From positions 112,924 to 176,923 of the forward strand of contig CAVYAZ010000002.1 in assembly GCA_963766595.1 (NCBI GenBank): a DNA stretch of 64,000 nucleotides, read 5' to 3'. The notes under the pieces are model-generated. The model made no database searches and was not told where the DNA came from. It was given only the letters and a program-made list of their open reading frames with translations. This document shows positions 46,172-64,000 of the stretch, piece by piece (the stretch's first letter is position 1; each line of letters opens with the position of its first letter). The position numbers and the translations under genes are program-made. This stretch comes from an uncultured Gammaproteobacteria bacterium. GTDB taxonomy: Bacteria > Pseudomonadota > Gammaproteobacteria > Xanthomonadales > Rhodanobacteraceae.

Positions 46172-46187
46172 GTCGTGCGGGTTTGTC

Positions 46188-48427: not shown

Positions 48428-48464
48428 GGTGGTAGCGGCCGGGCCAGAAAGTCCGTGACCACTA

Positions 48465-48481
48465 CGCAACAGCCGTGCCAG
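48465..48481 (-). promoter_or_regulatory. sigma54 (-24/-12) promoter of the T_hemolysin operon
   Basis: Minus strand CTGGCACGGCTGTTGCG matches TGGCACG-N4-TTGC, about 38 nt upstream of the ATG; an AT-rich tract (48526-48558) and inverted repeats lie further upstream. Confidence 0.85.
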
Positions 48482-48604
48482 CGCCGCCGCGGCGCCGGCG
48501 ACGCAACGCAATTGCCTGATCGGCATTGCAAAATGTATAAAAGTTAATTTTGTATTATGGGCGGCGAGGCGCGCCGCAAGGGCTCGCGCTGCAATTGTTG
48601 TTTG

Positions 48605-49090
48605 CTAATCTTGCAGTGGCGCGCAGGTTGCGTTGCGGCGCGGGCAGTTCGGCACGTCGCCGACGGTCAGCAGGACGTTGACGCGCGCATCGGCGGGACA
48701 CGACGAAACGTAGCCGATCGCGCCGGGGGTAGAGAGCACGAACAGCACGACGGCTTCTTCGGACGCCAGCACATGCGGCGGCAGCACGCCGTGGAAGTAC
48801 ATCTCGCGCCAGTAATCCTCCATCGACTCCGGTTTACGGCCGAAGATGCATTGGGAAAATGCCTGGCGCAGCGCGTGGCTCGCCGGCAGGTTGACCGGCT
48901 GGATACGCGTGCCGTCCTCCCAGTAGTTCTGCCTGCGCCGGAACATCAGCGACACCGATTCGCGCGACAGGCGTTGCTCGGGCGATTTCGCCGCGGTAAT
49001 GACCGCGAACGGCAGATCGGGCGAAGCGTCCTGCCGGGCAAATGCGAAAGAGAACAGGGTTGACGCCAGCAGGGTCGGGAGCAGGCGCAT
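48605..49090 (-). CDS. Small exported binding protein (PBP2/phosphate-SBP-like)
   Basis: Signal peptide; LSRESVSLMFRRRQNYW, SEEAVVLFVLSTPGAIGYV. Confidence 0.72.
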   Translation of the reverse strand: MRLLPTLLASTLFSFAFARQDASPDLPFAVITAAKSPEQRLSRESVSLMFRRRQNYWEDGTRIQPVNLPASHALRQAFSQCIFGRKPESMEDYWREMYFHGVLPPHVLASEEAVVLFVLSTPGAIGYVSSCPADARVNVLLTVGDVPNCPRRNATCAPLQD

Positions 49091-49098
49091 GCCGGCCC

Positions 49099-50184
49099 TC
49101 ACAGCAGGATGGCGATCGAGCACAACAGCCCGTCCGGGGTATGGATATCGTTGTTCCTGCTCGATATCCACTCGGCCTTGAGCACGAGCGACGGCGTGAT
49201 GCGGTAGTTCAGGCCGGTCACGAGCAGCTGGGTGGCCGAGCGCTCGGCCGCTACGCGGAATGTCTCGTAGCGGCCGACCGCGTAGAGCTTTTCAGTCAGC
49301 GGCGCGACCAGCTGCACGAAGGCGCCTTTTTCGTCGCGAGTAGCGCCTTGATCGGAGAAGCGGTAGACCGCTTCGGCGCTGATCTCGTAGCGGTTGCGCG
49401 ACCACGCGTAGTCCAGGCCAACCAGCTGCTTGCGCTCGAAGCGCGTCTTGTCCTGCTCGAAGTTGGCCACGGAAAAGCCGATCTGGCCGGCGCCAAGCAA
49501 GGGGATATCAACGTGCGCGCCGATCGCGCTCGAGAACGTGTCGAGTTCGGGGTTCGGATGCAGCTCGTCGCCAGCCGAGCCGTAGATCGAGTAGTCGATG
49601 CCGTTGCCGAGGTTCGGCAGCGTCTGCGTGAGCATGACGCCGGTCATGTTGGTCGGGAAGACGAGCGTCGTGATCAGTGGCCGCGACGTCGTCCACACCA
49701 GCGGTGTCGCATGGATCAGATTCCAGCGCCCGATCGGCGTGAGGAACTTGCCCACGCGCACCTCGGTTGCATCGGTGAGTGCATAGTCCACGTACAGGCG
49801 TTCGAGCGACAGGTAACCGTCCCGCTGGCGGATATCGCCGCGATCGGACGAGCGCGTGTACAGGGGATTTTCCAGCTCGAGTTCCGAGAAGAATTTCCAG
49901 CGGCTGTCGCCCTCCCACCAGATGAACAGGCTGGCATTGTCGATTGCCGCGCGTGACGGTGCATGCTGCGGATCCGCGTAGCTGCCGGTCGCGTATCCGC
50001 CGAGGGTGAAGCCCGTGCCGGGCACATGGAAGCCGTCGCCGAGCCGATAGCCGGTCTGGGCCTGCGGCTGGTCGTCGTTCAGCGGCGGTTCGTCGGCGTG
50101 GGCCGGCGACGCGGTCGCGGCGAGGCACAGCGTCGTGAAGCACAACGCGTATGGGCCAAGGGCAGACCGCAGCGCTAACATCAA
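49099..50184 (-). CDS. Outer-membrane beta-barrel / porin-like protein
   Basis: Signal peptide; alternating aromatic beta strands; LERLYVDY, VRVGKFLTPIGRWN; ends in IAILL. Confidence 0.75.
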   Translation of the reverse strand: MMLALRSALGPYALCFTTLCLAATASPAHADEPPLNDDQPQAQTGYRLGDGFHVPGTGFTLGGYATGSYADPQHAPSRAAIDNASLFIWWEGDSRWKFFSELELENPLYTRSSDRGDIRQRDGYLSLERLYVDYALTDATEVRVGKFLTPIGRWNLIHATPLVWTTSRPLITTLVFPTNMTGVMLTQTLPNLGNGIDYSIYGSAGDELHPNPELDTFSSAIGAHVDIPLLGAGQIGFSVANFEQDKTRFERKQLVGLDYAWSRNRYEISAEAVYRFSDQGATRDEKGAFVQLVAPLTEKLYAVGRYETFRVAAERSATQLLVTGLNYRITPSLVLKAEWISSRNNDIHTPDGLLCSIAILL

Positions 50185-50282
50185 ATGGCCGGGTCGCGCA
50201 TGCCGACGCAGGCCGGCCGTGCCCGTGTATACTTGTTCGCGCCGATGCCGCCCAGCATATTCATTTCCACTACTATACGCTC

Positions 50283-52039
50283 GTGACCATACGCAAGACG
50301 CTACTCGTCGCGTTTCTGAGCGTCGGCCTGATTTCCGCCATAGTTCTGACCAGCTTGGCGTTTGTCAAGGCGCGCGCTGCGCTGCGGGCGGAAATCGAAC
50401 GCAACGTTGCGCTCGAGGCCGCCGGAATTGCCGCCGACATCGACAAGATGATGTTCGAGCGTTTGCAGAACGCGGCGATCTGGAGCCGGCTCGACATCAT
50501 GCAGGACCTGCAGGTGCGCGACGTCGACAAGCGGCTGTCGCGATTTCTTGCCGACCTGCATGACGGCTATCGCGACGTTTACGACAATCTGTCGTGCAGC
50601 GATACCCAGGGACGCATCGTCAGCAGCAGCGATGCGGCGCTGATCGGCCAGGAGGTGACCGCGGCGCCGGCGTGGCTGCGTGCTTCATTGTCCGGTGCCG
50701 ACGTTGAGTTGGAACTGCGCGAGGGCAAGGGCGAAGTCGGCGTGCTCATGCAGGTTGCGTTGACATCCGCATTCAATGGCCAGCCGCTCGGGTCGCTGCG
50801 CCTGCAGCTCGATTGGGCCGAGATCCATGACGTGCTCGATCGCGCCAGTGCCGACGGCGCCCGCATCGTGGCGGTGCTCGACCATGATGGCCGGCTGATC
50901 GCCGCGTCGCAGAATCTTCGTCGCCGCAGCTTTCTGCTCGGCGACAGGCTGGCCGATTGGCGCCTGCTTGCCGGGTCCGTCAGCGAACGCCCCGGTGCGC
51001 CGCTGGTCGACTCCAGCGTGATCGTCGGCGCGGCCGGCTCGCGCGGCTACGCGCAGTTCGCCGGCTTCGGCTGGACCACGCTGATCGTCCAGCCGGTGGA
51101 CGTCGCATTGGGACCGGTCCACAGCATGGCCTCGATTTTTCTGGCGCTGCTTGGGCTGATCGCGTTGTTCACGCTACTTACGGCAATCTGGGTGAGCCGC
51201 GAGATTGCCCGGCCGATCGTCGCGCTTACCGGGTTCGCACGCGGCTACATGCGCGACAAGGTGCTGCAGGTGCCGGCAAGCGAGGGCGCCGGCGAGGTGC
51301 GCGAACTGACCGATGCCTTCGTGCAGATGGTCCGCGACATCGACCTGTCGCAGCAAAACCTCGTGCGCGCGTCGAAGCTGGCGGTCGTCGGCGAGATGTC
51401 CTCGGCGATCGCGCATGAAGTGCGCACGCCGCTCGGCATTATCCGCTCATCGGCGCAGATGCTGCAGCGCGAGTCGGGGATCAGCGACGAAGCGCGCGAG
51501 CTGGTCGGATTCATCGAGAGCGAAACCGAACGGCTCAACCGCCTGGTTTCGGCGATGCTCGACACGGCGCGCCCACGAACACCGTCGTTCGCAACGGTGG
51601 ACCTGCATGAACTGATCCGCAGCAGCGTGGCGATGCTCGCGGCCCTCGCCGACAAGAATCAGGTACGGGTAACGACGCGTCTGCTAGCCTCCACGGCGGT
51701 CATCGAATGCGACGAGGAACAAATGACGCAGGTGCTGCTCAATCTGCTGATGAATGGCCTGCAGATCCTGCGCAACGGCGGGCGCATCGAACTGGCCACG
51801 CAGGACGAGGGCGACCAATTGCGCATCGAGATCGCCGATGACGGACCCGGCATCGACGCGGCCGAGCGCGCGCGCGTTTTCGAGGCATTTTTCTTCAAGC
51901 GCGAGGGCGGCATTGGCCTGGGTTTGGCGATCGTGCAGCAGATCATCCGCGCCCATGGCGGCGACATCGAAGCGGCCGACAGCCCGCTCGGCGGCGCGAT
52001 GTTCCGCATCCATTTGCCGCGCAACCGGCCGGAGGCCGC

Positions 52040-52043
<4 letters not shown>
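50283..52043 (+). CDS. Sensor histidine kinase (TM - Cache-like periplasmic domain - TM - HAMP - HisKA - HATPase)
   Basis: AHEVRTPL H-box, QVLLNLLMNG, DDGPGI, GIGLGLAIV. Confidence 0.92.
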
Positions 52044-53416
<1,373 letters not shown>

Positions 53417-53431
53417 CCGCCGCTTCGGCGA

Positions 53432-53911
53432 TTATTTGGCCGCGGTCTTCTGCGCCGGCATCATCGGCCCGTCGATCCAGCGGCTGATCTTCCAGCTCTT
53501 GTCGGGCTGGCGGCGCCAGACCTCGTAGCTGCGAAATGTGTCGACTTTGTCGGCGCCGGCAGCCTGCTTCGTGGTCTGCGTCCATGTATCGCGCACGACG
53601 GCGAGCGATCCATCGACGATGACTTCGTTGATCGTCAACGCATAGGTCGTGTCGGGCGTCTTGATCGGCAGCTTCGCGTAGGCGGCTTCGCGTTCGTAGG
53701 TGTCGTCCGGGCCGTCCGGCGCCCAACCGATCAGGTCCGGCGCCCAGACCGCGGACGCGGCCTTGTAGTCGCCGTGGTTGGCCGCTTCGACCCAACTGGC
53801 GAGCGCCGCCCGAATCTGCTTTTCCGCTGCTGCGTTGTCGGCGGCAGGGTGGGCAACGACAAGACCCGAGGTGACGAGCAGCGCGAAGGCGCACAACGTG
53901 GAAGTCTTCAT
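53432..53911 (-). CDS. Exported NTF2/SnoaL-like (DUF4440-type) protein
   Basis: Signal peptide; IRAALASWVEAANHGD...EVWRRQPDKSWKISR. Confidence 0.8.
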   Translation of the reverse strand: MKTSTLCAFALLVTSGLVVAHPAADNAAAEKQIRAALASWVEAANHGDYKAASAVWAPDLIGWAPDGPDDTYEREAAYAKLPIKTPDTTYALTINEVIVDGSLAVVRDTWTQTTKQAAGADKVDTFRSYEVWRRQPDKSWKISRWIDGPMMPAQKTAAK

Positions 53912-54008
53912 GGACTCTCCCGCTGAATGATCGTGCTCAAGGATAACGTGCTACCCGTATTCCGATATATGCCGGAAGTACGCATCGAACGCGCGTGGCA
54001 GACCGGGT

Positions 54009-54047
54009 TGAACCCTCTCCCGCCGGGAGAGGGGCAGGGGTGGGGGC
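54009..54047. repeat. REP palindrome CCCTCTCCC-gcc-GGGAGAGGG
   Basis: Same family as 6854-6876. Confidence 0.75.
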
Positions 54048-54196
54048 CGGGTGTGGTGCAACGTCGACGCATTGGCAAAGCTTTCAGCCAGTGCCTCGAA
54101 AGTCATGCTGGCCGCGCGAGACGAACTGAAACCCGACTCAACGAAGTGCGGCATACTTCGCGCTGCATCGGTCGTGTTCCAAGGCGGGGTGAACGC

Positions 54197-55099
54197 ATGG
54201 TCGTCGTCGTGTTGCTCGTGTCGCTCGCCGTACTTGCGACGGCGTTCATCGCTCTGCTGGCCAATGTCGCCCAACGGCGCGGGCAACTGCGGCCACGCAC
54301 CGAGGCAATCGCCCTTGGCGCAGTCACGAATTTCTTCGATACGCTCGGCATCGGCTCGTTCGCGCCGACGACGGCATGGCTGAAATTGCGCAGGCTGATT
54401 CCGGACAGTTTCCTGCCGGCGACATTGAACAGCGGCCACGCGCTGCCGACGATCGCGCAGGCGCTGATCTTCATCAATCTCGTGCGCGTCGACCCGATCC
54501 TGCTCGCCGCGTGCATCACTGCCGCGGTACTTGGCGCGACGCTCGGCGCACCGCTGGTCGTGCGCCTGCCGGTGCGCGCGGTACAGGGCATCGTTGGCGT
54601 CGCGCTGCTGATCGCGGCCGTACTCTATGCGTTGGCGAACCTCGGACTGCTACCGGCCGGCGGTGATGCGCTGGAATTGTCGCAGCCGCTGTTCGCGATC
54701 GCGGTCGCGGTCCATTTCCTGCTCGGCGCGCTTATGACGTTCGGCATCGGTCTGTACGCGCCGTCGCTGATACTGCTGAGCCTGCTTGGCCTGAATCCGA
54801 CCGCCGCGTTTCCGATCATGATGGGTGCGTGCGCGTTCCTGATGCCGGTCAGCGGCTTCCGTTTCGTGCGCAGCGAACGCGTCGACCTGCGCGTCGTGAT
54901 TGGCCTGGCGATCGGCGGCATTCCGGCGGTGCTGCTCGCGGCCTACGTCGTCAAATCGCTGCCGCTGGCCGGGCTGCGCTGGGGCGTCGTCGTCGTCGTT
55001 CTCTATGCTGCGGCATTGCTGATGCGCGCCGCACTCCAGCCTCTGCAGGCGCCCTCGACAATAGAAACTACCGTGGCCGTGGCGCAAAAAATGCAATAG
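54197..55099 (+). CDS. TauE/SafE family membrane transporter
   Basis: TNFFDTLGIGSFA, GIGLYAP, FPIMMGACAFL; about 8 TMs. Confidence 0.85.
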   Translation: MVVVVLLVSLAVLATAFIALLANVAQRRGQLRPRTEAIALGAVTNFFDTLGIGSFAPTTAWLKLRRLIPDSFLPATLNSGHALPTIAQALIFINLVRVDPILLAACITAAVLGATLGAPLVVRLPVRAVQGIVGVALLIAAVLYALANLGLLPAGGDALELSQPLFAIAVAVHFLLGALMTFGIGLYAPSLILLSLLGLNPTAAFPIMMGACAFLMPVSGFRFVRSERVDLRVVIGLAIGGIPAVLLAAYVVKSLPLAGLRWGVVVVVLYAAALLMRAALQPLQAPSTIETTVAVAQKMQ

Positions 55100-55248
55100 C
55101 GCCATACGGCATCGGTAGGATTGCGCATTGGCGAAAGGAGAACGTAACTTAGTCGGGATTGACGCTGGAAACTCGCTGCAAGCGCAGATCGACGCCAGCG
55201 GTCGACATGCGGCGAAGCGAACAGCCCACCAACCGGGAGGCTGCGGCA

Positions 55249-55815
55249 ATGAACGCAAAGTCCACGATCCTGCTGGGGGCACTGTGCCTGATTCCCGTCG
55301 AATATGCCGTATCGGCGGTGTGCAAGCCGGCAGTTCTCGACGGCGACCGCGTGCTCGACACCTCTTACAACTATTGCGCCGACGGTAGTTGTGGCACGTA
55401 CCAGGTGGGATACGACGGCACCACAGACCTCGGCTTCGGCGGGGCGGAGCCGGATCAAATCTCCTTCGAATTCTATTCCTATATCGCCGCCACGCCACCG
55501 GCCACGGGCACGTTTGACTTGGGCAGCGGCAACAACACCAACTACGCAACCTGCAACCAATGCATTCTGATCTTTCAGGACTTGATCGCTCCGCACGACC
55601 CGCAGAAGACTTTTTTTCAGACCGGGGGATCGATCACGATCGACATGAACACAGTGCCGGGAACCGCCGCGAATGTGGGTCTTTCGTGGAGCAACGTGAC
55701 ACTGGCCGAGGTGACGATCGATCCAGACACGTTCGTGTCGACGCTGGTGCCGGGCGGAGACTGCTACACGGTCGTTGCCGACCTGGTGTTTCGCAACGGA
55801 TTTGACGCGCCATGA
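55249..55815 (+). CDS. Exported Cys-containing hypothetical protein with C-terminal DLVFRNGFD motif
   Basis: GGGAGG RBS; signal peptide; NYATCNQC; ends VADLVFRNGFDAP. Confidence 0.78.
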   Translation: MNAKSTILLGALCLIPVEYAVSAVCKPAVLDGDRVLDTSYNYCADGSCGTYQVGYDGTTDLGFGGAEPDQISFEFYSYIAATPPATGTFDLGSGNNTNYATCNQCILIFQDLIAPHDPQKTFFQTGGSITIDMNTVPGTAANVGLSWSNVTLAEVTIDPDTFVSTLVPGGDCYTVVADLVFRNGFDAP

Positions 55816-56072
55816 TTCGTCAGCCGGCCGGTTCGCGCAAAAGGGGCGAGCAGTCCGCGGGGCAACGATGATGCGGGTCTTGGCGCAGTGACGCGTCCGT
55901 TGGCCACCGCGTGTGGTTGGTGGAAGTTTTTGACTGCTTCGTGCTCATAGGCATCCCAGGCCTTCTCATGCGCCGATAGTGTACGAGTCGTCTTCGACTT
56001 CTTGATCTCTCCTTGTCTGACGGCAGGTATATATTGCAGCCGCTTGGGCACAGAAGGAGGAACATAACGGCC

Positions 56073-56741
56073 ATGCGCGTCAACGACGATTTCTCCGAGC
56101 GCGTCGTCATCCAGACAAACGAGCTGCCATGGATTGCCTCGCCCCAGCCCGGCGTCGAGCGGCGAATGCTCGACCGCATCGGCGACGAAGTCGCACGCGC
56201 CACGTCGCTGGTGCGCTACGCGCCGGCCAGCGTCTTCGAGCCTCACGTTCACGGGCTCGGCGAAGAGTTCCTCGTGCTCCAAGGCATTTTCTCCGACGAG
56301 CACGGCGACTACCCGGCCGGCACTTACGTGCGCAATCCGCCAGGTAGCTACCATTCGCCGCGCACGGAGCCCGGCTGCATCATCCTGGTCAAGCTGCGCC
56401 AGATGGCGCCGACGGAACGCGAACGCATCGTCGTTGACACTGCGAAAGCGCAGTGGCGACGAGGCGACGCCGAAGGGCACACGCGCCTGGATTTGTATAC
56501 GAACGGCGAAAACGGCGAGCACGTAACGATCGAACGCCTCGGTGCCGGCACGAGTCTTCCAGCGATGGAGCGTCCAGACGGCGAGGAGATCTTCGTTCTG
56601 TCTGGCTGCCTGGACGACGGGCAGGGCGAACATCTTTCGGGCACCTGGATTCGCAATCCACCTGGGTATCGATGTAGCCTGAATTCAGAGCGCGGCGCGG
56701 TATTCTGGGCCAAGCGCGGCCATCTGAACGCGGCACGGTGA
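56073..56741 (+). CDS. ChrR-like cupin (cupin_7) protein
   Basis: GVERRMLDRIGDEVARATSLVRY, HVHGLGEEFLVL, YVRNPPGSYHSP. Confidence 0.88.
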   Translation: MRVNDDFSERVVIQTNELPWIASPQPGVERRMLDRIGDEVARATSLVRYAPASVFEPHVHGLGEEFLVLQGIFSDEHGDYPAGTYVRNPPGSYHSPRTEPGCIILVKLRQMAPTERERIVVDTAKAQWRRGDAEGHTRLDLYTNGENGEHVTIERLGAGTSLPAMERPDGEEIFVLSGCLDDGQGEHLSGTWIRNPPGYRCSLNSERGAVFWAKRGHLNAAR

Positions 56742-56807
56742 GAAAGGTCAGTTCCGCGGCGCTGAGTCGTAACCGATCGGCGCAGCTCGGAGAAGATCGA
56801 GGCGACG

Positions 56808-57518
56808 TCAGTCTTTGTGCGTGTCGCGGTGCTCGCCGCAGCCTTGTGCGCTGCGGCCGGGATGCTCCGCGCACGGAACCTTGCCGCTGTCGCCGTCCGC
56901 TGCGTAGGCCGGATCGAGCGCAGCGACGACCGCGCGGACACCGGCCTTGATATACGGCACGGAGTCCGCCTTGAACGGGGGATCCGCCTTGTGGTGATAG
57001 TCCGACTGCGCGATGAGCTTCCCGTCTGCGGCCGCATAGACATACATGTCGGCCTGGTAGCCAACCTTTGGGGGAACGAAGCCGCCCATGCCGGTGTTTT
57101 CGCTCGCGTAGCTCGGCGTGGCGAACGGTGCGAAGCGCACGACGATGCGTTAGTCGACGCCGCCATCGGTCTTGGCGCGCTGCGTGGCCGGCACGCCGGC
57201 ATTGGCGTCGAACGCAGCAGGGTTTGCCAGTTCCGTGATTGCCGCCTGTGCACGTCCGGCGCTCGCGACGATTGCCAGCACGACGACGAGTGCGACATAA
57301 ACCAGCGCGAAGCGGATCGAGGACCACGGCGGCGTTTTTCGGCGCGCCAGCAACCAGCAGACCAGCGCGGCGATGCCGGTGTTGGCAAAGACACGCCCTA
57401 TGGCTTCACCCGCACCATCGGGCGAACCCGGCGCTCCGACAAATGCGAACAGCGCCGCGACGATAACTCCGAGCGCTGCAACCCAGCAGACAAGGGCTTG
57501 TTTGGCGGCGAGTGACAT
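56808..57518 (-). pseudogene. Membrane protein of unknown function apparently split by one in-frame TAA (57150-57152), or two adjacent small genes
   Basis: ORFs 57150-57518 (3 TMs) and 56808-57140 share a frame: ...DGGVD*RIVVRFAPF... Confidence 0.4.
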
Positions 57519-57599
57519 AGTCGAACCCACTGGAGAGTCGCGCGGACGTTACAGGAGGAAACGCAGAACAGCGGCAAAAGCGAAGAGTTTGCTGCTTTC

Positions 57600-57697
57600 G
57601 TCGGTTGGGTCGAACCAGGTGAAGCCCAACGTCGATGTCAGGTTTGCTGATCGTTATCGCTGCGCTCAACCCAGCCTGCGCCTCGACCCAACCTATG
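57600..57697. repeat. Degenerate GTAG-type REP doublet (GGTTGGGTCGA ... TCGACCCAACC)
   Basis: Arms at 57603-57613 and 57683-57693, with internal gttggg/cccaac hairpin; supplies the stop codon of the next gene. Confidence 0.65.
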
Positions 57698-58427
57698 GTC
57701 CGGTTTGCTGCGCACCAGGGTGATCCAGCAATTCGACCAGAATGACGTGGTACTCATCGCCTCCGCTGTTCTTCACGCGATGCACATAGGGCAGCGGTCC
57801 CTTCTCGATCGTCACGGCGCCGCTCGGTAAAACCTCCGGCGACGTCCACTCGCCCCCGGACTTTTGCGCGGAGATGCGGCTACCTGGGATTCTCACGCCA
57901 ACATTGGGGAACTCGTGTCGATGCCACTGGGTCGTCTCGCCGGGCGGAATGCGCGCTTCGACGATGCGGAAGTAGGGCGTCTGCATTACCCAGTGATGAT
58001 GCGGCTCGTGCAGAATCCCTTCCGGTTCGACGGTGCTGCCGTCATCCGGCGCGGCTTGCGACGTGCCAAGTTGCGCTTGCCGCTTGAATTCGATTTCGAT
58101 ATTCTCGACCGGCGTGTTGCCGATATTGGCGACAGCATGCGTCTCCGGCCCGAATGCCAGTGGCCGCTTCTGCGGATCGACGGCAACGACCACGCTGCTG
58201 CCAACGGGCTTGCTCAGGCGCAGCGTTCCGGACTGTACCGCGATCACGACGCGTGGCGGATGGCTGTGCATCGCCGCGCTTGCGCCAGGCTCGTAGTGCG
58301 AGCGGATCACGCGAATGTTTGCGTCTTCGTACTCGACTTTCGCAATCGCAGGCGAGACCTGCATCAGGTCCTGCGCGACCGCGTTGCCCAGCAGCAGTGC
58401 GAACGGCAGGCAGCGCAGCAGGGTCAT
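57693..58427 (-). CDS. Exported tandem-cupin protein
   Basis: Signal peptide; two modules EDANIRVIRSHYEPGASAAMHSHP and TPYFRIVEARIPPGETTQWHRH. Confidence 0.8.
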   Translation of the reverse strand: MTLLRCLPFALLLGNAVAQDLMQVSPAIAKVEYEDANIRVIRSHYEPGASAAMHSHPPRVVIAVQSGTLRLSKPVGSSVVVAVDPQKRPLAFGPETHAVANIGNTPVENIEIEFKRQAQLGTSQAAPDDGSTVEPEGILHEPHHHWVMQTPYFRIVEARIPPGETTQWHRHEFPNVGVRIPGSRISAQKSGGEWTSPEVLPSGAVTIEKGPLPYVHRVKNSGGDEYHVILVELLDHPGAQQTGP

Positions 58428-58539
58428 CGGTCTTTCCTCAAGCGGGTGGAACAAGGTAGCACGCCGCATGGCTGCGGCGACTTGCGGCGCAGTACGCTGC
58501 GCCTAATACGCTGCGTCTAAAGAGAAACCTCAGACAAGC

Positions 58540-58613
58540 CGTCATCCCAGCGAAGGCTGGGATCCAGTTCCCCAGCAATCTGCAAAAAAGGCTGGATTTC
58601 AGCCGGGATGACG
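58540..58613. repeat. Palindromic element GTCATCCCAGCGAAGGCTGGGATCCAG ... CTGGAT..GGGATGAC
   Basis: Nested hairpin with terminal GTCATCCC/GGGATGAC inverted repeat; widespread proteobacterial repeat type. Confidence 0.75.
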
Positions 58614-58618
58614 AACGT

Positions 58619-58640
58619 AGGTGAACCTGTCACCCTTTTT
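58619..58640. repeat. REP unit GTGAACCTGTCACCCTTTTT
   Basis: Same core as 59535-59553, 59613-59634 and 63671-63691. Confidence 0.7.
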
Positions 58641-58654
58641 ACTGTTTTTAATGG

Positions 58655-59431
58655 CTACGGCCCGAACGAGTCGGCGAAGATGCGGTCATCCTGGCCGTTC
58701 AGCGTGAACGCGAGATTGAACGAGCTGCCGCTGCCGATCATGTCGGTGCCGATACGCAACCAGTTCGGTGCAAGGTTCGCGTTGCGGATCCAGGCCTGCT
58801 GGTCCGACGCGAACGGTGTGCCGGGCGATACGATGGGACGCGATCCAGAGAGCCAGTAGAAACCGCCACTGAAGAGCGCTACCTGCGCGACGAAGAAGTA
58901 GTGGCCATTGGGCAGCGTGATCGCGGGAATGAAGGTCGCTGTGACCACACCCTCTGCGCCGGACACTGGACCTTCGCCGCCGGTCAGGTTGTTCGGCGCG
59001 GGATTGATTCCATTGAGCACCGAATTCAACGCCGAGAAACTCGGGTTCAGCAGCGTGAACGAGACGGTGAGGCTGTCGGTCGCCGTGTCGCGCGCTTCGT
59101 ACGCGACGTCGGAAGGTGAATTGACGCGAGTCGGCGAGCCTGGCGGGGGCGGGTTCGTCGAATCGAGCGGAAACACGCGGTAGATTTTGACGACGACCTC
59201 GCTGATTGAAGCCCCGGACGCGCCACTCGGCAGCAATCCGGTGAAGGTCGCACTCGTCAGTGTCGTCTGCAGCGGCAGCACGAAGTCGTCCGCAGCCTCC
59301 TTGAACGCCGAGCCGGGCTGCGATGCCGCAGCGAGCAGATTGCTCGGCGTTCCGGTGCTGAAGGCGTAGGGATTGGCCAGCGCAGAGGATGTCGTCGCCA
59401 GCAGGGCCGAAACAAGCCATGAGAGTTTCAT
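58655..59431 (-). CDS. Exported protein with C-terminal DDRIFADSF motif
   Basis: Signal peptide MKLSWLVSALLATTSSALA; VPTR/VNSPSDVA-type conserved core; ends NGQDDRIFADSFGP. Confidence 0.8.
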   Translation of the reverse strand: MKLSWLVSALLATTSSALANPYAFSTGTPSNLLAAASQPGSAFKEAADDFVLPLQTTLTSATFTGLLPSGASGASISEVVVKIYRVFPLDSTNPPPPGSPTRVNSPSDVAYEARDTATDSLTVSFTLLNPSFSALNSVLNGINPAPNNLTGGEGPVSGAEGVVTATFIPAITLPNGHYFFVAQVALFSGGFYWLSGSRPIVSPGTPFASDQQAWIRNANLAPNWLRIGTDMIGSGSSFNLAFTLNGQDDRIFADSFGP

Positions 59432-59491
59432 TGCGATCACCCGAGGGGCATCGGCTGGAAGCATAGCCGCTCAGCCGGCGCCGGCGCCAAC

Positions 59492-59720
59492 GAAACGGTG
59501 TCAGCGTCGTTTCCTCTGCTTGAAACGAGTGTATGTGAACCTGTCACCGTTTCGTAAGTGAATCGCGCCCGACAAAGTGGATCAGGTACACGTCTTGGTC
59601 GAGCAGGGAGGGAAAATGAACCTGACCCCGTTTTCGCCCCTGAGCCCAACGGCGCAGACACAGACGAATCGAGACAAGCGCATCAGAGTGCCTTATTCGA
59701 CGCAAATGGCACTCTGACCC
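59492..59720. repeat. Cluster of REP units: GAAACGGTGTCAG/CTGTCACCGTTTC doublet, AAAATGAACCTGACCCCGTTTT, and TCAGAGTGCC/GGCACTCTGA doublet
   Basis: 59492-59553, 59613-59634 and 59683-59720. Confidence 0.7.
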
Positions 59721-59739
59721 GCTAGCCATTTGCCACCAT

Positions 59740-60099
59740 TCAACCGCCGGGAATCGACAACACGGGCATGACCTCGATCGAATCGCCTGGGAAGATCGTG
59801 AAATGCGGGTGCCGTTCGAACATACGGGCGGCGGCTTCGTGCGAATCCGCGCGCACGACCGTGAAGGCGCCGAGTTCATTGGCGACGTCGCCGATTCCGC
59901 TTGCGGAAACCTTCTTTGTGCTGCCCAGTGGTCCGCCCATCGCGACTATGGCGGACTGATACTTCTCGGCCCAAGCCTTCCATGCCGCCATGCCCTCCTG
60001 CTCCTTCGCCTGGCGCTCGGCCGGCGACAACGCATTCCAGTTCTTAAATCCATCCTTGCTGCCGAGAAAGATCGCGAGATAGGTTCCGGTCGGATTCAT
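59740..60099 (-). CDS. YCII-related domain protein
   Basis: AWKAWAEK..IVAMGGPLG..FTVVRADSHEAAARMF..HPHF..IEVMP. Confidence 0.78.
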   Translation of the reverse strand: MNPTGTYLAIFLGSKDGFKNWNALSPAERQAKEQEGMAAWKAWAEKYQSAIVAMGGPLGSTKKVSASGIGDVANELGAFTVVRADSHEAAARMFERHPHFTIFPGDSIEVMPVLSIPGG

Positions 60100-60232
60100 C
60101 GTGGGCTCTCCGTTGTCAGGGCGAGACATTCGCCTTCTCATCATACGACGATCGAAAGGCGCGACGATGCATTCGCGCAACGCCACGATCCAGGTCGCCG
60201 CAACAACGGTGAAGATCACGGGCAAATTAAAG

Positions 60233-61550
60233 GGTTCGTTCACCCAATTCCGGGAAAGGCAGCTCGGATCTTGAGAAAGAAGTAAACATCGTCCCGAAAG
60301 CCGTAAGCCATGCGCTTGATGACTTTGATGCGGTTATTGATGCCCTCAATGAGGTTGGTGCCCAGCGGATAGCGGCAGTGAGCCAGAATGCCGGGCAAGT
60401 AAGGTCGCAGGGCGCGAGCGAAGCGTCGCAGCGGTTCGATGCCACTGCGCAAGGCTTTTCGGTACCAGCTTCGCCAGGCACGAAAGGCGTAACCGCGGTG
60501 ACGGTAGTGCCATAGCTCTTTGAGCGCGTCGCGCAATACGTAGACGACGAATAGGTCGTGGTTTGCGGAGCAGTTCGTCCAGTGTCACATCCTCGCCTGG
60601 CCGCAACGAAGCCCGGTTCTTGAGCAGCAACCAGCGGGCACTCTTGACGATACGACGCGCCGGTCGGTTCGCGCGCAGTTCGTTGGCGCGATCCACGCGG
60701 ACCCGGTCGATCACCTCACGTCCGTACTTGGCGACCACGTGGAAAAGATCGAAGACGATGGCCGCGTGTTTGCAGTGCTCACGCACCTCGAGTTCGTAGC
60801 CAGCATTCATGTCCATCACGGCGGCTTTGAGCTGGCCACAACGTTCGGGGCCAAGCAGGGTGAAGAACGGGCGGACGTCCTGGCGTCCGCGGCCACGTCC
60901 GACCCACAACACGCGCTTGCGTGTCGGCTCGACGATGACGGTCGCGTAACGGTGGCCTTTTTGAATCGCGAATTCATCCATCCCGATCACCTCCACGCCG
61001 TCCAGATCGATCGGACCCAGTTCGCGCTCCAGGTAGGCCCGGTCCAGGTCCTTCACCGTTTTCCAGTCCAGCACGTAGAACCGCGCCACGTGCAGGATCG
61101 CGGCGACCTTGCATAAGCGCGACACCGAGTCGGCCAGGCGCCGGGTAACCCGCGCGTACGCATCCAGCCATGGCAGCCGCTCGACCTTGGGACCGCACCG
61201 AGGGCACTCGACCCGTATGCGCGGCACGATCAGCTCGACCGAGTGCTCGAACACCGGTAAGTCGCGGACCCGGCGTTCCTCCACATCGTGGATCCCTGTC
61301 GTCCGGAACCCGCAACCGCTACAGCAGCGCAGATGACTCGCCAGCGCCACGAGCTCAATCACGCACCAGGATCGACCCTGACGCACCTCGATGTGGTCTT
61401 CCTTGACCTCATACCCTTCCCAGCTTCCAAGCTGAGACATAGGATGGCATTGGGCCACGGTCGCCTCCTGCAGACTTGATGCTTCGCAACACCAAGTTAG
61501 CAGCGCGACCGTGCGCCCGCTTCAGTTACCCCGGAGATTGGAGAAGAACC
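60233..61550 (-). mobile_element. ISL3-family insertion sequence, 1318 bp, with 9-bp target duplication AAATTAAAG
   Basis: Ends GGTTCGTTCACCCAATTCCGGG / CCCGGAGATTGGAGAAGAACC (imperfect inverted repeats); AAATTAAAG at 60224-60232 and 61551-61559. Confidence 0.9.
60240..61458 (-). CDS. ISL3 transposase; frameshift near 60568
   Basis: CCSGC/CPRC zinc ribbon, IGMDEFAIQKGHRYAT, VMDM, FDLFHVV, EGINNRIKVIKRMAYGFRD. Confidence 0.92.
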
Positions 61551-61570
61551 AAATTAAAGAGGCGTTACAA

Positions 61571-62443
61571 AAAAAGGCCGGGGCAAATCAACGAGGGCGT
61601 TAGGCAATTACGTGTTGTCGGCGGGACTGTCGACACCGCTGCGCGAAGCCGGACGTCCCCGCGGCCGAACCGAAGCAGGGCGATTCAGCGTCCGCTCGAC
61701 CATTGCCCGAAAGCGGGCGTCGCCGTACGCACGCTGTTGCACCGCGTGCGCGCGGATCGTCTTGAGCTGTTCTTCGCTTTCGCCGGCGTGCAACCATTCG
61801 CGATAGGCGACACGCCGTGACTTCGCATCGGCACCGAGCGCGAGCAGACAAGGATGTGGCGCGATCAACGAATCGCACTTCAGACCGAGGTTCGCGTGAA
61901 CGCTCGACCAGGCGTAATCCTCCGGCGCCGCAACCATTCCAGCACGCACCGGGTTGCGCTCGATATAGCGGTAGACGCTCAGCACGTAGTGATCGGTCGC
62001 AACGAGGCAGGATTTGAAGCGGCCTTCCCACAGCGTACCGCTACGGTGGTGGCGATGGTTGAACGCCTGTACATAGCATTGCGTGGACCGGTGCAACGTC
62101 GCCGTCGCGGCGCCGGGAGTCGGTGCGCTGGTGAGCAGATGAACGTGATTGCCCATCAGCACGTAGGCGTGGATGGCGAGCGCGTTCTGCCTGGCAAAAA
62201 GTCCAAGCAGGCGCAGATAGTCATGTCGATCGTCGTCGTCGAGGAACGTGGCGCAGCGGTTCACGCCTCGCTGCGTGATGTGCAAGGGTACGCCAGGGAG
62301 CTCGAGACGCGGCGGACGAGGCATGCGGGCGATGGGCGGGGAAGGTGATGAATTTTCGTGCCCGCCTTCATGGTCCGCCATCGGAACGATGCGTCACCGC
62401 GTGTAGGAGTTTTCCTATACCTAATTTGCCCCGGCCCCTTTTC
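61571..62443 (-). mobile_element. RAYT/Y1-transposase locus bounded by inverted REP-like units
   Basis: AAAAAAGGCCGGGGCAAAT (~61571-61589) and ATTTGCCCCGGCCCCTTTT (~62425-62443) are reverse complements with 2 mismatches. Confidence 0.7.
61608..62324 (-). CDS. REP-associated tyrosine transposase (RAYT, Y1/HUH family)
   Basis: MPRPPRL..PGVPLHITQRG, HAYVLMGNHVHLL (HUH), LWEGRFKS, YIERNPVRAG, YAWSS. Confidence 0.92.
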   Translation of the reverse strand: MPRPPRLELPGVPLHITQRGVNRCATFLDDDDRHDYLRLLGLFARQNALAIHAYVLMGNHVHLLTSAPTPGAATATLHRSTQCYVQAFNHRHHRSGTLWEGRFKSCLVATDHYVLSVYRYIERNPVRAGMVAAPEDYAWSSVHANLGLKCDSLIAPHPCLLALGADAKSRRVAYREWLHAGESEEQLKTIRAHAVQQRAYGDARFRAMVERTLNRPASVRPRGRPASRSGVDSPADNT

Positions 62444-62471
62444 CGCGAGAACTGCGCCGTCCCTTAAACAG

Positions 62472-62519
62472 AAAGGGGACGTAGCTAATTAGCCCCGCTC
62501 AATTAGCTACGTCCCCTTT
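62472..62519. repeat. Perfect 19-bp inverted-repeat doublet (REPIN-like)
   Basis: AAAGGGGACGTAGCTAATT - 10 nt - AATTAGCTACGTCCCCTTT. Confidence 0.85.
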
Positions 62520-62529
62520 ACCTGTTCTT

Positions 62530-63558
62530 TCACTGAGCATCGGTCAAGCACTGGATCGTCGTTTGCAACGAGAAGTTCGAACCGATGGTGTGGCGCTGCG
62601 CCCGAAACAGGTCGAGCCGGTACGTGTTACCCGGCGTAAGCCCATAAAAAGCTGCATGCGCGGGGTCGAGGGTCACCGACCCGGTCGTTGCAGCGTGGAC
62701 GCCGCCCAGATCGATGACGAGCTTGCCGTCGATGTAGATCCATACGTCGTCATCCCCGGTGAAGGAGACCGTCTCGCCGCCGTGGAACGCGAATTGCGCG
62801 TGCAGCATGGTGGTGAAGTCGTAGTTGTGCCCGGTGCTACCGAGGTTGCCGAAGCCGAGGCCGTCGATCGGAAAGTAGGCAGTGTTCGAAAACTTGAACG
62901 TGCCGGGTGGATTCTCGGTGAGCAGCAGCGACTGCTGGATCGGCAAGTTGATGGTGTCGTCCGTGAACCATTGCGCGAACGAATCGGCGCTGGCGATTTG
63001 TACTTTTGTCGGGCCCAGGCTCCCATATGTCGATTGAAGCGTCGGCACACCGCCGGGCACGATGCTCGAGGCGGCAAGGCCGGTAGCAAGCCCTGCGTCG
63101 AATTGCTCGAAGTCCGGATGGCCGCCGGCTTCGAAGTAGGCCTTGAAGTCGTGGAGATATGCTGTCAGCGTGCCGCAGGGCACGACTGTCACCGGCTTCG
63201 ACGCCACGCTGGCCTCTTCGTTCGTGCCGTCACGGACCGTCTCGGTGACGGTGTACATTCCGCCGGCCGGGAAGGCGTGGACCGGATTCTGCAAGGTCGA
63301 TGTGCCGCCATCACCGAAGTCCCAGGCCCACGAACCGATCGTCCCGCCGACATCAGCTGATTGGTCGGTGAACGTTACCGCCAATCCCTCGGCGGCAAAG
63401 GTGAAGTCGGCCACCGGCGGAGGATCGAACGCGTCGGCGAATATCTCGTCGGATGCCGCTTCGTCGGGAAGCGCGAAGGCAACGCCGTTGGCAGCAAACG
63501 CGAGCGCGATGATCAACGCACGGGTGCAGTGCGGGTGTAAAGCGATGGCGTTTTTGAT
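62530..63558 (-). CDS. Exported PKD + fibro-slime (PA14-like) domain protein with N-terminal DEIFADAF motif
   Basis: SWAWDFGDG PKD; GHPDFE, YFPIDGLGFGN, HNYDFT, FTGDDDVWIYIDGKLVIDLGGVH; start uncertain (ATC after AGGGG at 63558; the ORF is open to 63657). Confidence 0.85.
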   Translation of the reverse strand: MKNAIALHPHCTRALIIALAFAANGVAFALPDEAASDEIFADAFDPPPVADFTFAAEGLAVTFTDQSADVGGTIGSWAWDFGDGGTSTLQNPVHAFPAGGMYTVTETVRDGTNEEASVASKPVTVVPCGTLTAYLHDFKAYFEAGGHPDFEQFDAGLATGLAASSIVPGGVPTLQSTYGSLGPTKVQIASADSFAQWFTDDTINLPIQQSLLLTENPPGTFKFSNTAYFPIDGLGFGNLGSTGHNYDFTTMLHAQFAFHGGETVSFTGDDDVWIYIDGKLVIDLGGVHAATTGSVTLDPAHAAFYGLTPGNTYRLDLFRAQRHTIGSNFSLQTTIQCLTDAQ

Positions 63559-63640
63559 GGGTTCGCCCCTGGGCCGAAAGACGGGCCAGAGGATAACCGG
63601 AAGCGCCAACAGGGAGATAGGGTGAGAGTGCCCAACCGAT

Positions 63641-63691
63641 AACGGTGTCAGGTTCACTTACACTCATTCGGTAAGTGAACCTGACACCGTT
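63641..63691. repeat. Perfect 21-bp inverted-repeat doublet (REPIN-like)
   Basis: AACGGTGTCAGGTTCACTTAC - 9 nt - GTAAGTGAACCTGACACCGTT. Confidence 0.85.
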
Positions 63692-63707
63692 TTTTGTTGC
63701 TCATCCC

Positions 63708-63998
63708 TCATCGAGCCTGTGCATCAAGGAGCATCCTGAGGAAGGAAGCTCCTGCGCTGATCATCTGAATAGCGAGCGGCTCCGGAATGTCGATCGGTTC
63801 GTCGTCCCTTTGCCCATGGCGGTAGAAGTGCGCGCCATCGACCCAAGATGCAAAGCTGATCATTGCCTTTCGACAAGCGTGCTGCGCAGTAGTATCCGTC
63901 CCTAACTTTGCGACTACGATCGTGGCCAACTCACCTTTGACGGTCGCACCGTCCAGCCTGGCCGATGAAGTCATGCGTTTGGCGAGAATCTCAATTGC
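63708..63998 (-). CDS. C-terminal end of a hypothetical protein entering from beyond the window (lower GC)
   Basis: Frame open to the edge: AIEILAKRMTSSARL...FASWVDGAHFYRHGQ...ISAGASFLRMLL. Confidence 0.6.
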   Translation of the reverse strand, partial: AIEILAKRMTSSARLDGATVKGELATIVVAKLGTDTTAQHACRKAMISFASWVDGAHFYRHGQRDDEPIDIPEPLAIQMISAGASFLRMLLDAQAR

Positions 63999-64000
63999 CT

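Follow-up and report, generated by a model that had tools for sequence, protein, structure and literature searches.

A decaying TIRYT transposase locus with dispersed non-GTAG repeat families in an uncultured Rhodanobacteraceae bacterium

In the 64-kb stretch of DNA analysed here (the window), non-GTAG repeat units of four families (A, B, C and D) occupy the intergenic gaps between 58.6 and 63.7 kb around a Y1 transposase gene and are absent from the remainder. This raises the question of whether the units belong to the transposase, and whether it uses them to move the neighbouring genes. The locus is very probably (at about 85%) a TIRtron, i.e., a TIRYT gene with its terminal inverted repeats, in which the nearby units would be repeats of sister lineages, mobilised as small pairs and probably acting as terminators.

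The transposase, its repeats and an inserted element are annotated as follows.

60220..60232 (+): second family B unit, truncated to GGGCAAATTAAAG next to the ISL3 element
60233..61550 (-): insertion sequence of the ISL3 family, its terminal repeats imperfect and its transposase frameshifted
61569..61591 (+): downstream terminal inverted repeat, degenerate family B, TTGATTTGCCCCGGCC-TTTTTTT on the gene strand, 2 mismatches
61608..62324 (-): TIRYT gene for an HUH/Y1 transposase of 238 aa, TnpA-Y1 subclass 2.1, i.e., RAYT Group 1
62420..62442 (-): family B repeat AAAAGGGGCCGGGGCAAATTAGG (gene strand) forming the upstream terminal inverted repeat, about 100 nt ahead of the start codon

The transposase ORF spans 61608-62381 on the minus strand, with 62324 as the probable start (238 aa); an in-frame ATG upstream of it, at 62381, would yield 257 aa. 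A Y1 transposase had already been recognised in a sequence-only reading of this DNA, and it was verified by matches to Pfam Y1_Tnp (33.5 bits) and NCBIfam REP_Tyr_transpos (63.7 bits, under the model cutoff of 80). The 238-aa protein contains the motifs NHVH, WE (LWEGRF) and YIERNP, with Y120 located in RYIERNP, and retains every residue that is invariant among 28 homologues. A profile search matches ISDra2 TnpA and TnpArep, the latter also being the top PDB match of the AF2 model (4er8, E=4.3e-9), and the Stenotrophomonas maltophilia TIRYT Smlt4509 is 50% identical over the full length. The traits of the protein equal those tabulated for subclass 2.1; for the tail HTH similarity reported for this subclass, no Pfam match was found in the window transposase. 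The transposase is a TIRYT of TnpA-Y1 subclass 2.1 (RAYT Group 1). Genes of this type look domesticated, and the class is already described and little studied.

Inverted AAAAGGGGCCGGGGCAAAT units enclose the transposase gene, as had been noticed from the sequence. AAAGGGGCCGGGGCAAAT occurs at 62424-62441(-) and, with 2 mismatches, at 61571-61588(+), and nowhere else in the 64 kb (0.01 matches expected by chance). The upstream unit is found at the equal position in the compared loci L120, L208 and L210. The degenerate downstream unit lies 22 nt past the stop codon; in L208, which contains a 90%-identical homologue, it is intact (TTAATTTGCCCCGGCCCCTTTTT) at the same spacing. The second B unit is reduced to its inner 13 nt, whereas metagenome contigs without the insertion sequence read ...AAAAAAGGGGCCGGGG joined to CAAATTAAAGAGGCG, which is an intact B unit. 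The ISL3 element, which has inserted into the AT-rich inner part of this outer 3' repeat, is bordered by the direct repeat AAATTAAAG (60224-60232 and 61551-61559). Its Pfam and NCBIfam ISL3 matches are divided between two ORFs, and copies from four metagenomes have 2 additional bases (GC) after 60567. Apart from the transposase element itself, no family B copies are present in the 64-kb window, and no target-site duplication was found at the element ends. With a mutated 3' repeat, a truncated outer 3' repeat and an inserted ISL3 element, the local TIRtron is decaying.

The other repeat units and the neighbouring genes are arranged as follows.

58617..58639 (+): single family A unit, GTAGGTGAACCTGTCACCCTTTT, 17 nt past the stop of the gene 58655-59431
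58655..59431 (-): gene for an exported protein of 258 aa, function unassigned, a neighbour outside the element (first proposed cargo)
59494..59551 (unstranded): imperfect family A doublet, AACGGTGTCAG... / ...GTGAACCTGTCACCGTT
59575..59634 (unstranded): family A unit with GGGG (AAAACGGGGTCAGGTTCAT, minus strand, 59612-59634) and a weak, indel-containing partner (59575-59592)
59677..59723 (unstranded): family D doublet, GCGGGTCAGAGTGCC..., 17 nt past the YCII stop codon
59740..60102 (-): YCII-like gene with a weak Pfam YCII match
62472..62519 (unstranded): family C doublet, its two perfect arms of 19 nt (AAAGGGGACGTAGCTAATT) separated by 10 nt
62530..63558 (-): gene for an exported PKD and PA14/fibro-slime protein, a neighbour outside the element (second proposed cargo)
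63633..63699 (unstranded): family A doublet of 29-nt arms (21 perfect) with a 9-nt spacer

The family A motif GTGAACCTG[AT]CACC[GC]TTT was detected at 5 sites (58621, 59535, 59616, 63640 and 63675; 0.04 expected), with a degenerate partner at 59494. The more general pattern AA[ACG]GG[GT]G[ACT]C[AGT]G matches 7 sites, all within 58.6-63.7 kb, and none in 1-58.5 kb. Together with the hairpin at 59677-59723, these sites confirm the further variants of common layout that the sequence-only reading had described, and its perfect doublets of 19 and 21 bp were likewise recovered. The family C arms (62472-62490 and 62501-62519) are 100% complementary, lie 10 nt past the stop of the PKD/PA14 gene and recur as a sequence in L120 at 16026. 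The arms of the 21-bp pair (63641-63661 and 63671-63691) extend to 29 nt at 90%. The statement that no unit starts with GTAG or CTAG is essentially right, except that the 58617 copy begins with GTAGGTGAACC on the opposite strand; other copies start with GTAT or GTAA, and GTAG is not conserved in the family, with copies elsewhere reading ...CACTTAC or CACTTCC. At sites orthologous to 58617..58639, an A-like unit is present in L206 and units resembling family B2 (see below) are present in L205 and L207. The family A pairs of 59494-59634 are missing from the orthologous intergenic spacer of L207, in which a degenerate D doublet lies at the position matching 59677..59723.

Single units fold no better than shuffles (z about 0), whereas inverted pairs reach RNA folding energies of -33 to -44 kcal/mol (z -5 to -9 against shuffles) and form very stable hairpins directly 3' of stop codons. 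The values are -44.1 kcal/mol (z -9.2) for the family A doublet at 63633..63699, -39.6 kcal/mol (z -8.7) for the family C doublet, -32.8 kcal/mol (z -5.1) for the family D doublet and -27.2 kcal/mol (z -3.8) for the imperfect A doublet at 59494..59551. The A unit and its partner at 59575..59634 are not superior to shuffles (z +0.3).

Inverted flanking repeats with a score of at least 14 were found in 38 of the 54 homologous loci; the maximum was 12 when the downstream flank was shuffled, and 24 of 162 non-cognate pairings scored at least 14. In 16 of the 54 loci, no convincing flanking repeat was found. The upstream repeat is located at -80 to -160 in most of the 54 loci, and in most loci the downstream repeat overlaps or follows the stop codon through TTAA. 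The repeat sequence shifts with the protein lineage: family B is found in the window, L120 and L208, the related family B2 (GGGGACGGAGG...) in L123 and L125, and GGGGTCAGAG-type repeats in homologues at 42-48% identity. In L129, a 234-aa gene (315-1019, 47% identical) is bounded by A units at 210(+) and 1016(-), as is a truncated gene copy in L127. A paralogous TIRYT lineage has family A as its terminal repeat, and in the window this family is more abundant than that of the local transposase.

Dispersal varies between loci. In 20 kb of L120 there are about 18 units, drawn from families A, B, B2, C and D and chiefly in intergenic pairs, and L137 and L176 have 11-12 cognate copies in 10-13 kb, whereas most loci contain only the two flanking copies. 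Tandem direct copies occur in L011, L013 and L119. TIRYT genes at 80-90% identity were found in four unrelated contexts, and the repeat copy number at the element ends differs between metagenome strains; a clean pair of empty and filled sites with exact boundaries was recovered for none of the doublets. The repeats are cognate to the TIRYT gene, dispersed and of non-GTAG type; their anatomy, co-variation with the gene, dispersal and folding are shown here.

The units could instead be ordinary intrinsic terminators, alike by A-tract, G + C stem and T-tract and without any role for the transposase. They directly follow stop codons, their strong hairpins are bordered by A/T runs, and an unrelated ordinary terminator of like appearance lies at 33490-33525; the doublets themselves were not called by a simple terminator scan because their loops exceed its 8-nt limit. 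This explanation is nevertheless unlikely, as copies at different sites are identical over 17-21 nt, members of the families turn up at non-orthologous positions in further genomes and genera, the same sequences form the ends of TIRYT genes, where they are conserved and co-vary with the gene, and solitary non-folding units also exist.

Slightly less likely still is the cassette platform proposed in the sequence-only reading, in which the Y1 enzyme would use unit pairs as ends to pick up and relocate individual genes for exported proteins. Units do lie on both sides of 58655-59431 and 62530-63558, as that reading had stated, because hardly any intergenic gap in this region is free of them. The 258-aa protein has no Pfam match and >6000 homologues, the closest being 86-90% identical on Rhodanobacteraceae-type contigs, with L205-L207 as orthologous loci. 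The PKD/PA14 protein matches PKD_4, PKD and PA14 (Pfam) and Fibro_Slime (NCBIfam); its start is uncertain, with a TTG near 63516 being probable, and its orthologue in L206 (3887-4882) has different flanking doublets. The stretch is gene-plastic, relatives differing by whole genes between conserved anchors: L206 has four other genes between the PKD/PA14 and 258-aa genes, L207 has MAPEG and glyoxalase, and the YCII gene belongs to a variable 670-bp module (59488-60157) that is present in L207 and absent in L205, L206 and one contig of run X2. Furthermore, nucleotide homology blocks stop at or inside units, and a B unit contains one rearrangement junction. However, the outer (A-run/GGGG) ends face the gene 58655-59431, whereas they face away in a TIRtron; the PKD/PA14 gene stands between two complete, self-contained doublets of families C and A; and neither gene is flanked by family B, the local enzyme's own. 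The L205-L207 orthologues bear other unit families at equal sites, and therefore the units do not travel with the genes. The one precise gene indel among the relatives, YCII, is not bracketed by units: only one of its breakpoints has a unit close by, at 11 nt, and both show GCGCC microhomology. In L120, units occupy most intergenic gaps irrespective of the gene, and the neighbour genes of the window adjoin 0 of >80 other TIRYT loci compared. Movement of neighbour genes as cargo by the transposase is not supported.

A chromosomal integron whose distal end would be this array, with AAC...GTT-bounded imperfect palindromes of ~58 bp as attC sites, can practically be dismissed: all five ORFs between 58.6 and 64 kb read from the minus strand and the A doublets (about 51-58 bp) start with AAC and finish with GTT, but the units are Y1 transposase gene ends, the same families lie between genes of mixed orientation in L120, several doublets are fully palindromic and lack the extrahelical bases that typify attC sites, direct tandem copies exist (L011, L013, L119), and no integrase was found in the ORFs of 57.7-64 kb or called beside the related L120 units.

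The TIRtron has terminal inverted repeats of ~23-30 bp, with an A-run and GGGG at the outer end and AATTAA at the inner end, and each TIRYT lineage would recognise the family-specific inner part of its own repeats. Families A, C and D would be the same kind of repeat from sister lineages, present singly or as head-to-head pairs. Such a pair may be the remnant once everything between two terminal repeats is removed, which would make it a miniature, non-autonomous derivative comparable to a REPIN or MITE. The TIRYT would cut and rejoin single-stranded DNA, so that small pairs could spread into intergenic DNA; we infer its repeat recognition, binding, cleavage and strand specificity by analogy with IS608/ISDra2 TnpA and E. 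coli TnpA-REP. Once transcribed, the pair would form a very stable hairpin framed by A/U tracts just past the stop codon. Its probable role is that of a (bidirectional) terminator or a stabiliser of 3' ends, which would favour its persistence.

Among known systems, the locus shares the HUH/Y1 catalytic core and the lack of a visible target-site duplication with IS200/IS605 elements (IS608, ISDra2), whose ends, in contrast, are different subterminal hairpins on one strand instead of inverted repeats, and which are high-copy and often accompanied by tnpB. As in REP/REPIN-RAYT systems (E. coli TnpA-REP/YafM, PDB 4ER8; Pseudomonas Group 3), a single-copy Y1 gene lies within inverted, dispersed extragenic repeats, the repeats form families that change along with the gene, the mobile unit is probably an inverted pair (REPIN) and the repeats are found mainly behind genes; 4ER8 is also the best structural match. 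Unlike these, the window units have no 5' GT[AG]G tag, a single unit is not a palindrome, and the protein exceeds theirs by about 80 aa, has a C-terminal tail, is only 25% identical over 104 aa and scores under the NCBIfam REP_Tyr_transpos cutoff.

The agreement with subclass 2.1/RAYT Group 1 includes the median length of 238 aa, the NHVH, W[EQ] and YIELNP-like Y motifs, the C-terminal helical tail, the low copy number and the moderately repeated flanking 16-mers (about 12 per replicon in RAYT Group 1; Bertels et al. 2017, PMC5581495). Quentin et al. 2018 found no REP-like sequences for subclass 2.1, which they equated with Di Nocera's TIRYTs (PMC6006769), whereas flanking repeats were found here in 38 of 54 loci, with proliferation in some genomes.

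TIRtrons were described with terminal inverted repeats of the GGGGWSAS type, e.g., Smlt4509 and Smlt1152 of Stenotrophomonas maltophilia K279a, and with 'moderately abundant TIR families ... dimers or clusters' (Di Nocera, De Gregorio, Rocco 2013, BMC Genomics 14:522, PMC3733652), with which the dispersal in L120, L137 and L176 agrees. The window locus differs in its core GGGGCCGG, which deviates from GGGGWSAS at two positions, in having at least 4 related repeat families in 5 kb with one TIRYT gene, and in being degenerate and hit by an insertion sequence. It shares the RAYT-like Y1 gene of about 230-240 aa, the long flanking terminal inverted repeats with a GGGG core at fixed distances, unrelated to GTAG REPs, the 3' repeat overlapping or abutting the gene end, the moderate abundance of repeats as singles, dimers and groups, and the host order Xanthomonadales/Lysobacterales. 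The sequence-only reading was thus right in seeing a RAYT-type gene with non-GTAG families; the class it took to be distinct is the known TIRYT/TIRtron class (TnpA-Y1 subclass 2.1, RAYT Group 1), of which this locus is one more member.

The final 5.4 kb of the window contain five ORFs, all on the minus strand, and every unit of the terminal inverted repeat (TIR) type is confined to this part. The G + C content is about 60-62% at 55000-64000 vs. about 65% at 40000-55000. Relatives show whole-gene differences between the conserved anchors TauE (~54-55 kb) and cupin (57693-58427), and the gene-plastic zone probably extends past the end of the window. The features and repeat units, in which a doublet consists of two inverted units, are listed below.

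Features and repeat units of the final 5.4 kb
58655-59431, minus strand: ORF, exported 258-aa protein, no Pfam match
59677-59723: family D doublet
59740-60102, minus strand: ORF, YCII-like protein
60233-61550, minus strand: ISL3 insertion sequence (DDE_Tnp_ISL3 etc.), transposase frameshifted
61571-61588 (unit 61569-61591), plus strand: AAAGGGGCCGGGGCAAAT copy with 2 mismatches, downstream side of the Y1 gene
61608-62324, or to 62381, minus strand: ORF, Y1 (IS200-like) transposase
62424-62441 (unit 62420-62442), minus strand: AAAGGGGCCGGGGCAAAT copy by pattern match, upstream side of the Y1 gene
62472-62519: family C doublet, perfect 19-nt arms
62530 to about 63558, minus strand: ORF, exported PKD + PA14/fibro-slime protein
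63708-63974: 88-aa ORF, after the PKD/PA14 gene

The pattern AAAGGGGCCGGGGCAAAT occurs only twice in 64 kb (0.01 copies expected by chance), and both copies enclose the Y1 gene in inverted orientation, as had been noticed in the sequence-only reading. No extra copy of this family (B) was found in the 64 kb beyond the element itself; in the following, its Y1 transposase gene is termed TIRYT, and the gene and both TIRs together TIRtron. Families A, C and D are dispersed within the window. For family A, five copies of the pattern GTGAACCTG[AT]CACC[GC]TTT were detected vs. 0.04 expected, with a degenerate partner at 59494. In common orientation, all families share an A-run followed by GG(G/T)G-N-C-(A/G)-G; a regular expression for this layout identified seven sites, all at 58.6-63.7 kb, the first 58.5 kb being free of it, so that the earlier description of the sequence is accurate. 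On the opposite strand, one A copy starts with GTAG and the others with GTAT or GTAA, and since the GTAG end is not conserved in family A copies elsewhere, the label "non-GTAG" stands. The motif GGGGWSAS, common to some TIRs (Di Nocera et al., 2013, PMC3733652), is found exactly in the family A variant at 59632 (GGGGTCAG); the other A copies read GGTGTCAG, and family B (GGGGCCGG) shows two departures.

For comparison, 80 metagenome loci with TIRYT relatives (42-82% identity) and contigs of closer relatives were fetched. In 38 of the 54 loci with enough flanking sequence, the highest-scoring inverted repeat shared by the two flanks reached at least 14, with a maximum of 12 after shuffling of the downstream flank and 24 of 162 mismatched pairings reaching 14. 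In most loci, the upstream repeat is located at -80 to -160 and the downstream repeat overlaps the stop codon or lies shortly behind it, often via a stop-containing TTAA. The repeat sequence varies with the protein lineage: GGGGCCGGGGCAAATTAA is present in the window and the loci L120, L208 and L210, family B2 (GGGGACGGAGG(N)4TTAA) in L123, L125 and many others, and GGGGTCAGAG... repeats in the set of 42-48% identical homologues. L208 encodes a 90% identical protein; its repeats match perfectly along 30 bp and, as in the window, lie 22 nt from the stop codon. These results correspond to the published account, in which TIRs were described as having the GGGGWSAS motif, a near-constant distance from the coding sequence and a 3′ overlap, and as occurring in some species, above all S. 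maltophilia, as moderately abundant singles, dimers and groups (Di Nocera et al., 2013, PMC3733652).

Family A constitutes the TIRs of a paralogous TIRYT lineage. In locus L129, a second TIRYT of 234 aa (315-1019), 47% identical to the window protein, adjoins the first and has A units on either side, at 210 (+) and 1016 (-); in L127, A units are likewise located around a truncated TIRYT copy. The window thus contains one TIRYT with family B ends together with units of at least three other families, the cognate genes of which are absent from the window. A search of genome contigs with TGAACCTGWCACCSTT yielded, among the matches listed, mostly chance singletons and six informative Lysobacterales loci; these matches also place A units in Luteimonas, Dyella, Novilysobacter and a Lysobacterales MAG.

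Several further observations concern these sequences. At L129 210-2030 and L127 2647-6790, two TIRtron lineages, one with A ends and one with B2-type ends, are adjacent, one of them being truncated in L127. Family A units read in frame as VNLTPF or MNLTP and therefore seed false ORF starts at GTG codons (in the window, ORF starts at 63657 and 63675, and a further site at 59561), for example a 375-aa version of the PKD/PA14 ORF and a 76-aa ORF at 63675-63905. The leader at 62325-62419, which separates the TIRYT start codon from the upstream repeat and is also present in L120, L208, L210 and many of the loci L125-L200, contains TCCTAC (GTAGGA on the other strand), about 25 nt and CCGATGGCG in a spacing kept even in distant homologues, and this pattern may be a promoter or regulatory site. 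Another palindromic repeat type was detected at 58530-58612 (GTCATCCCAGCGAAGGCTGGGATCC with its partner GTCATCCCGGCTGAAATCCAGCC), with one further copy in locus L158; in metagenome contigs, its core (58540-58570) has ~10-fold raised depth and numerous loose ends, which marks it as a multicopy element of another family.

The TIRYT product probably comprises 238 aa; its nearest relatives (90-80% identity) have 236-238 aa with an equivalent Met start. All residues invariant in 28 homologues are kept (NHVH within GNHVHLL, LWEGRF and the RYIERNP tyrosine, Y120). Smlt4509 of S. maltophilia, taken from Additional file 5 of Di Nocera et al. (2013), where the founding TIRYTs are printed, is 50% identical over 229 aa, i.e., the full length (E=6e-79); the E. 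coli RAYT is 25% identical over 104 residues only. A search of the PDB with the single window protein sequence returned nothing, and the family profile matched ISDra2 TnpA (E=0.0017) and E. coli TnpA-REP (E=0.003). For the AlphaFold model (pLDDT 83), the best match was 4ER8 (E=4.3e-9, TM 0.71 on target), the structure of the REP-associated transposase in complex with a REP hairpin, with the IS608 and ISDra2 transposases as runners-up. The AF2 model contains three C-terminal helices at 167-213 (pLDDT 57-71), and no Pfam HTH was detected in the protein even at E<=10.

TnpA-Y1 subclass 2.1 is characterized by ~238 aa, the motifs NH[VYF]H, W[EQ] and YIELNP or Y[IV]HLNP (Table 1 of Quentin et al., 2018) and a C-terminal domain with helix-turn-helix similarity (Bac_DnaA_C, HTH_23, HTH_28); it is Bertels' RAYT Group 1 and was equated with the TIRYTs of Di Nocera et al. 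(Quentin et al., 2018, PMC6006769). The window protein fits this table in length and motifs and has a helical C-terminal tail in the AF2 model. The RAYT-like gene and its non-GTAG repeats proposed before are real, and the supposedly distinct class is the published TIRYT/TIRtron: the window element belongs to this known kind, and nothing in it departs from the published description. Many unrelated metagenome contigs give short matches to window 62135-62169 (encoding HAYVLMGNHVHLL), where depth peaks and loose ends lie to either side, which is explained by numerous TIRYT paralogues in soil communities.

The TIRYT ORF is intact and the 3′ end of the element is damaged. In the repeat at 61569-61591, TTAA is changed to TTGA and the G/C core is shortened. 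Metagenome contigs from soil and rhizosphere that are identical to 61550-61724 run on leftward into ...AAAAAAGGGGCCGGGG followed by CAAATTAAAG, an intact second B unit, and at this site the window contains only GGGCAAATTAAAG, followed by the ISL3 element. The latter lies between two copies of the direct repeat AAATTAAAG, in the AT-rich inner portion of the truncated B unit, and shows the features of the ISL3 family, i.e., a DDE_Tnp_ISL3 transposase containing a zinc ribbon and an HTH, inverted repeats at both termini and a short, AT-rich duplication of the target. IS copies in four soil/rhizosphere metagenomes contain an extra GC after 60567, so that the transposase of the window is split by a 2-bp deletion. 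In one metagenome strain, the upstream B repeat is tandemly duplicated. TIRYT genes of 80-90% identity occupy four unrelated neighbourhoods; therefore, the element or its surroundings move on short time scales, in agreement with the more IS-like behaviour of RAYT Group 1 (Bertels et al., 2017, PMC5581495). In the L207 spacer (too diverged) and the short metagenome contigs, neither a doublet nor the whole element could be matched to a clean empty site.

The sequence-only reading had further proposed a gene-capture or cassette platform for exported proteins, since the genes at 58655-59431 and 62530-63558 each have units on both sides. This was checked in the orthologous contigs L205, L206 and L207 (Rhodanobacteraceae MAG), in which the 258-aa gene has 86-90% protein identity, and found no support. 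The A-run/GGGG ends point outward in the TIRtron and toward the gene around 58655-59431, which by this polarity lies between two elements and not inside one. The PKD/PA14 gene is bounded by complete doublets of unlike families (C and A), and family B flanks neither gene. Behind the 258-aa gene, the units are A-type in the window and L206 and B2-like in L205 and L207; the PKD/PA14 gene has an A doublet upstream and C downstream in the window, and D at both places (a doublet upstream) in L206. As judged from these contigs, the units are not carried along when the genes move. Exact breakpoints were obtained for one gene-sized indel only, the YCII module (59488-60157). L207 contains this module, and it is missing from L205, L206 and one contig of the metagenome run X2. 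Both junctions show GCGCC; a unit is located 11 nt from one of them, and the other has none. The homology between L207 and the window also starts at the left breakpoint of this module. A tblastn search with the neighbouring genes of the window against all TIRYT loci fetched by then gave no match.

Homology blocks in the gene-plastic stretch end at units, as is expected where nearly every gap holds a unit, and several rearrangement junctions are located at or inside units. On an improbable reading, the slots behind genes would stay occupied across related genomes while the occupant family changes, with TIRYT-type repeats homing into repeats or terminators already in place, replacing one another and serving as seams for the gain and loss of single genes; if true, it would mean repeat-guided modular gene flux, not strict transposase "cargo".

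Most loci contain the two flanking repeats only. Cognate copies number 11-12 within 10-13 kb in L137 and L176 and seven in L120, and additional B copies were found in L120 (five) and L207 (one). The TIRYT of L120, 82% identical to that of the window, shares its B ends; this locus contains about 18 units in 20 kb, belonging to families A, B, B2, C and D and arranged mostly as inverted intergenic pairs, mostly at gene 3′ ends and between genes of mixed orientation. The pairs of L137 are two repeats fused at their inner TTAA ends, the expected remnant of a precise loss of everything between the ends. Single units fold no better than shuffled sequences (z about 0), and the folds of the pairs reach -39.6 kcal/mol for C (z -8.7), -44.1 for A (z -9.2) and -32.8 for D (z -5.1). 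The pairs sit 10-17 nt past stop codons with A/U tracts on both sides, and the units are probable marks of transcript ends. The pairs would thus be miniature TIRtron derivatives doubling as terminator-like hairpins; the catalytic steps we infer by analogy with IS608, ISDra2 and TnpA-REP. Plain terminators as the sole explanation (rejected ALTERNATIVES) were ruled out by the long identical stretches between sites, the occurrence of the families across genomes and the linkage to TIRYTs. A consensus terminator scan missed the doublets, due to its loop limit, and Rfam gave only sub-threshold, chance miRNA-like matches for the A doublet.

An integron-like array (likewise rejected ALTERNATIVES) had been suggested by the co-oriented ORFs and the 58-bp palindromes bounded by AAC...GTT; it was ruled out because the units are the ends of Y1 genes, L120 has genes in both orientations and some pairs form perfect palindromes, and no integrase was found in the ORFs examined at 57.7-64 kb. 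End repeats like those of Tn7/Tn5053, considered because A units form direct tandems in L011, L013 and L119, were dropped once A units were found to flank the TIRYT paralogue.

In Luteimonas cellulosilyticus (NZ_WUSX01000002.1; L013 434-1030), nine A units, nearly all direct, are located in 600 bp inside a larger repeated block (..GCGTCATCCTAGATAAGTGAACCTGACCCCGTTAT), adjoining a 756-aa gene the G + C content of which is below that of its surroundings. Direct A clusters are also present in L011 and L119. The pair model leaves these direct arrays unexplained.

TIRYTs (subclass 2.1, RAYT Group 1) are the largest RAYT-like group, under-studied and named in only two papers. The window locus and the 80 related loci show that the flanking repeats are regular and lineage-specific, that several lineages with their repeat families can coexist, unusually richly so in the lineage of the window, and that hairpin pairs proliferate in some Rhodanobacteraceae-type soil bacteria, which makes the group a reasonable system for studying how Y1 enzymes recognize non-palindromic ends. 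Knowledge of gene mobility is unchanged by the finding; for annotation, the units flag spurious ORF starts and probable transcript ends.

Compared with known systems, an integron cassette array has IntI and attC sites behind co-oriented promoterless cassettes, an arrangement that was not found at 57.7-64 kb, where the ORFs were examined. Classical REP-RAYT systems (subclasses 2.2/2.5; Groups 2/3) have a palindromic unit with a 5′ GT[AG]G tag and a protein above the REP_Tyr_transpos threshold, whereas the single units of the window do not fold and carry GTAG in one A copy only, and its protein scores 63.7 bits with this NCBIfam model, under the curated cutoff of 80. The window element resembles the TIRYT/TIRtron in its long non-GTAG TIRs, their characteristic distance and the 3′ repeat at the gene end.
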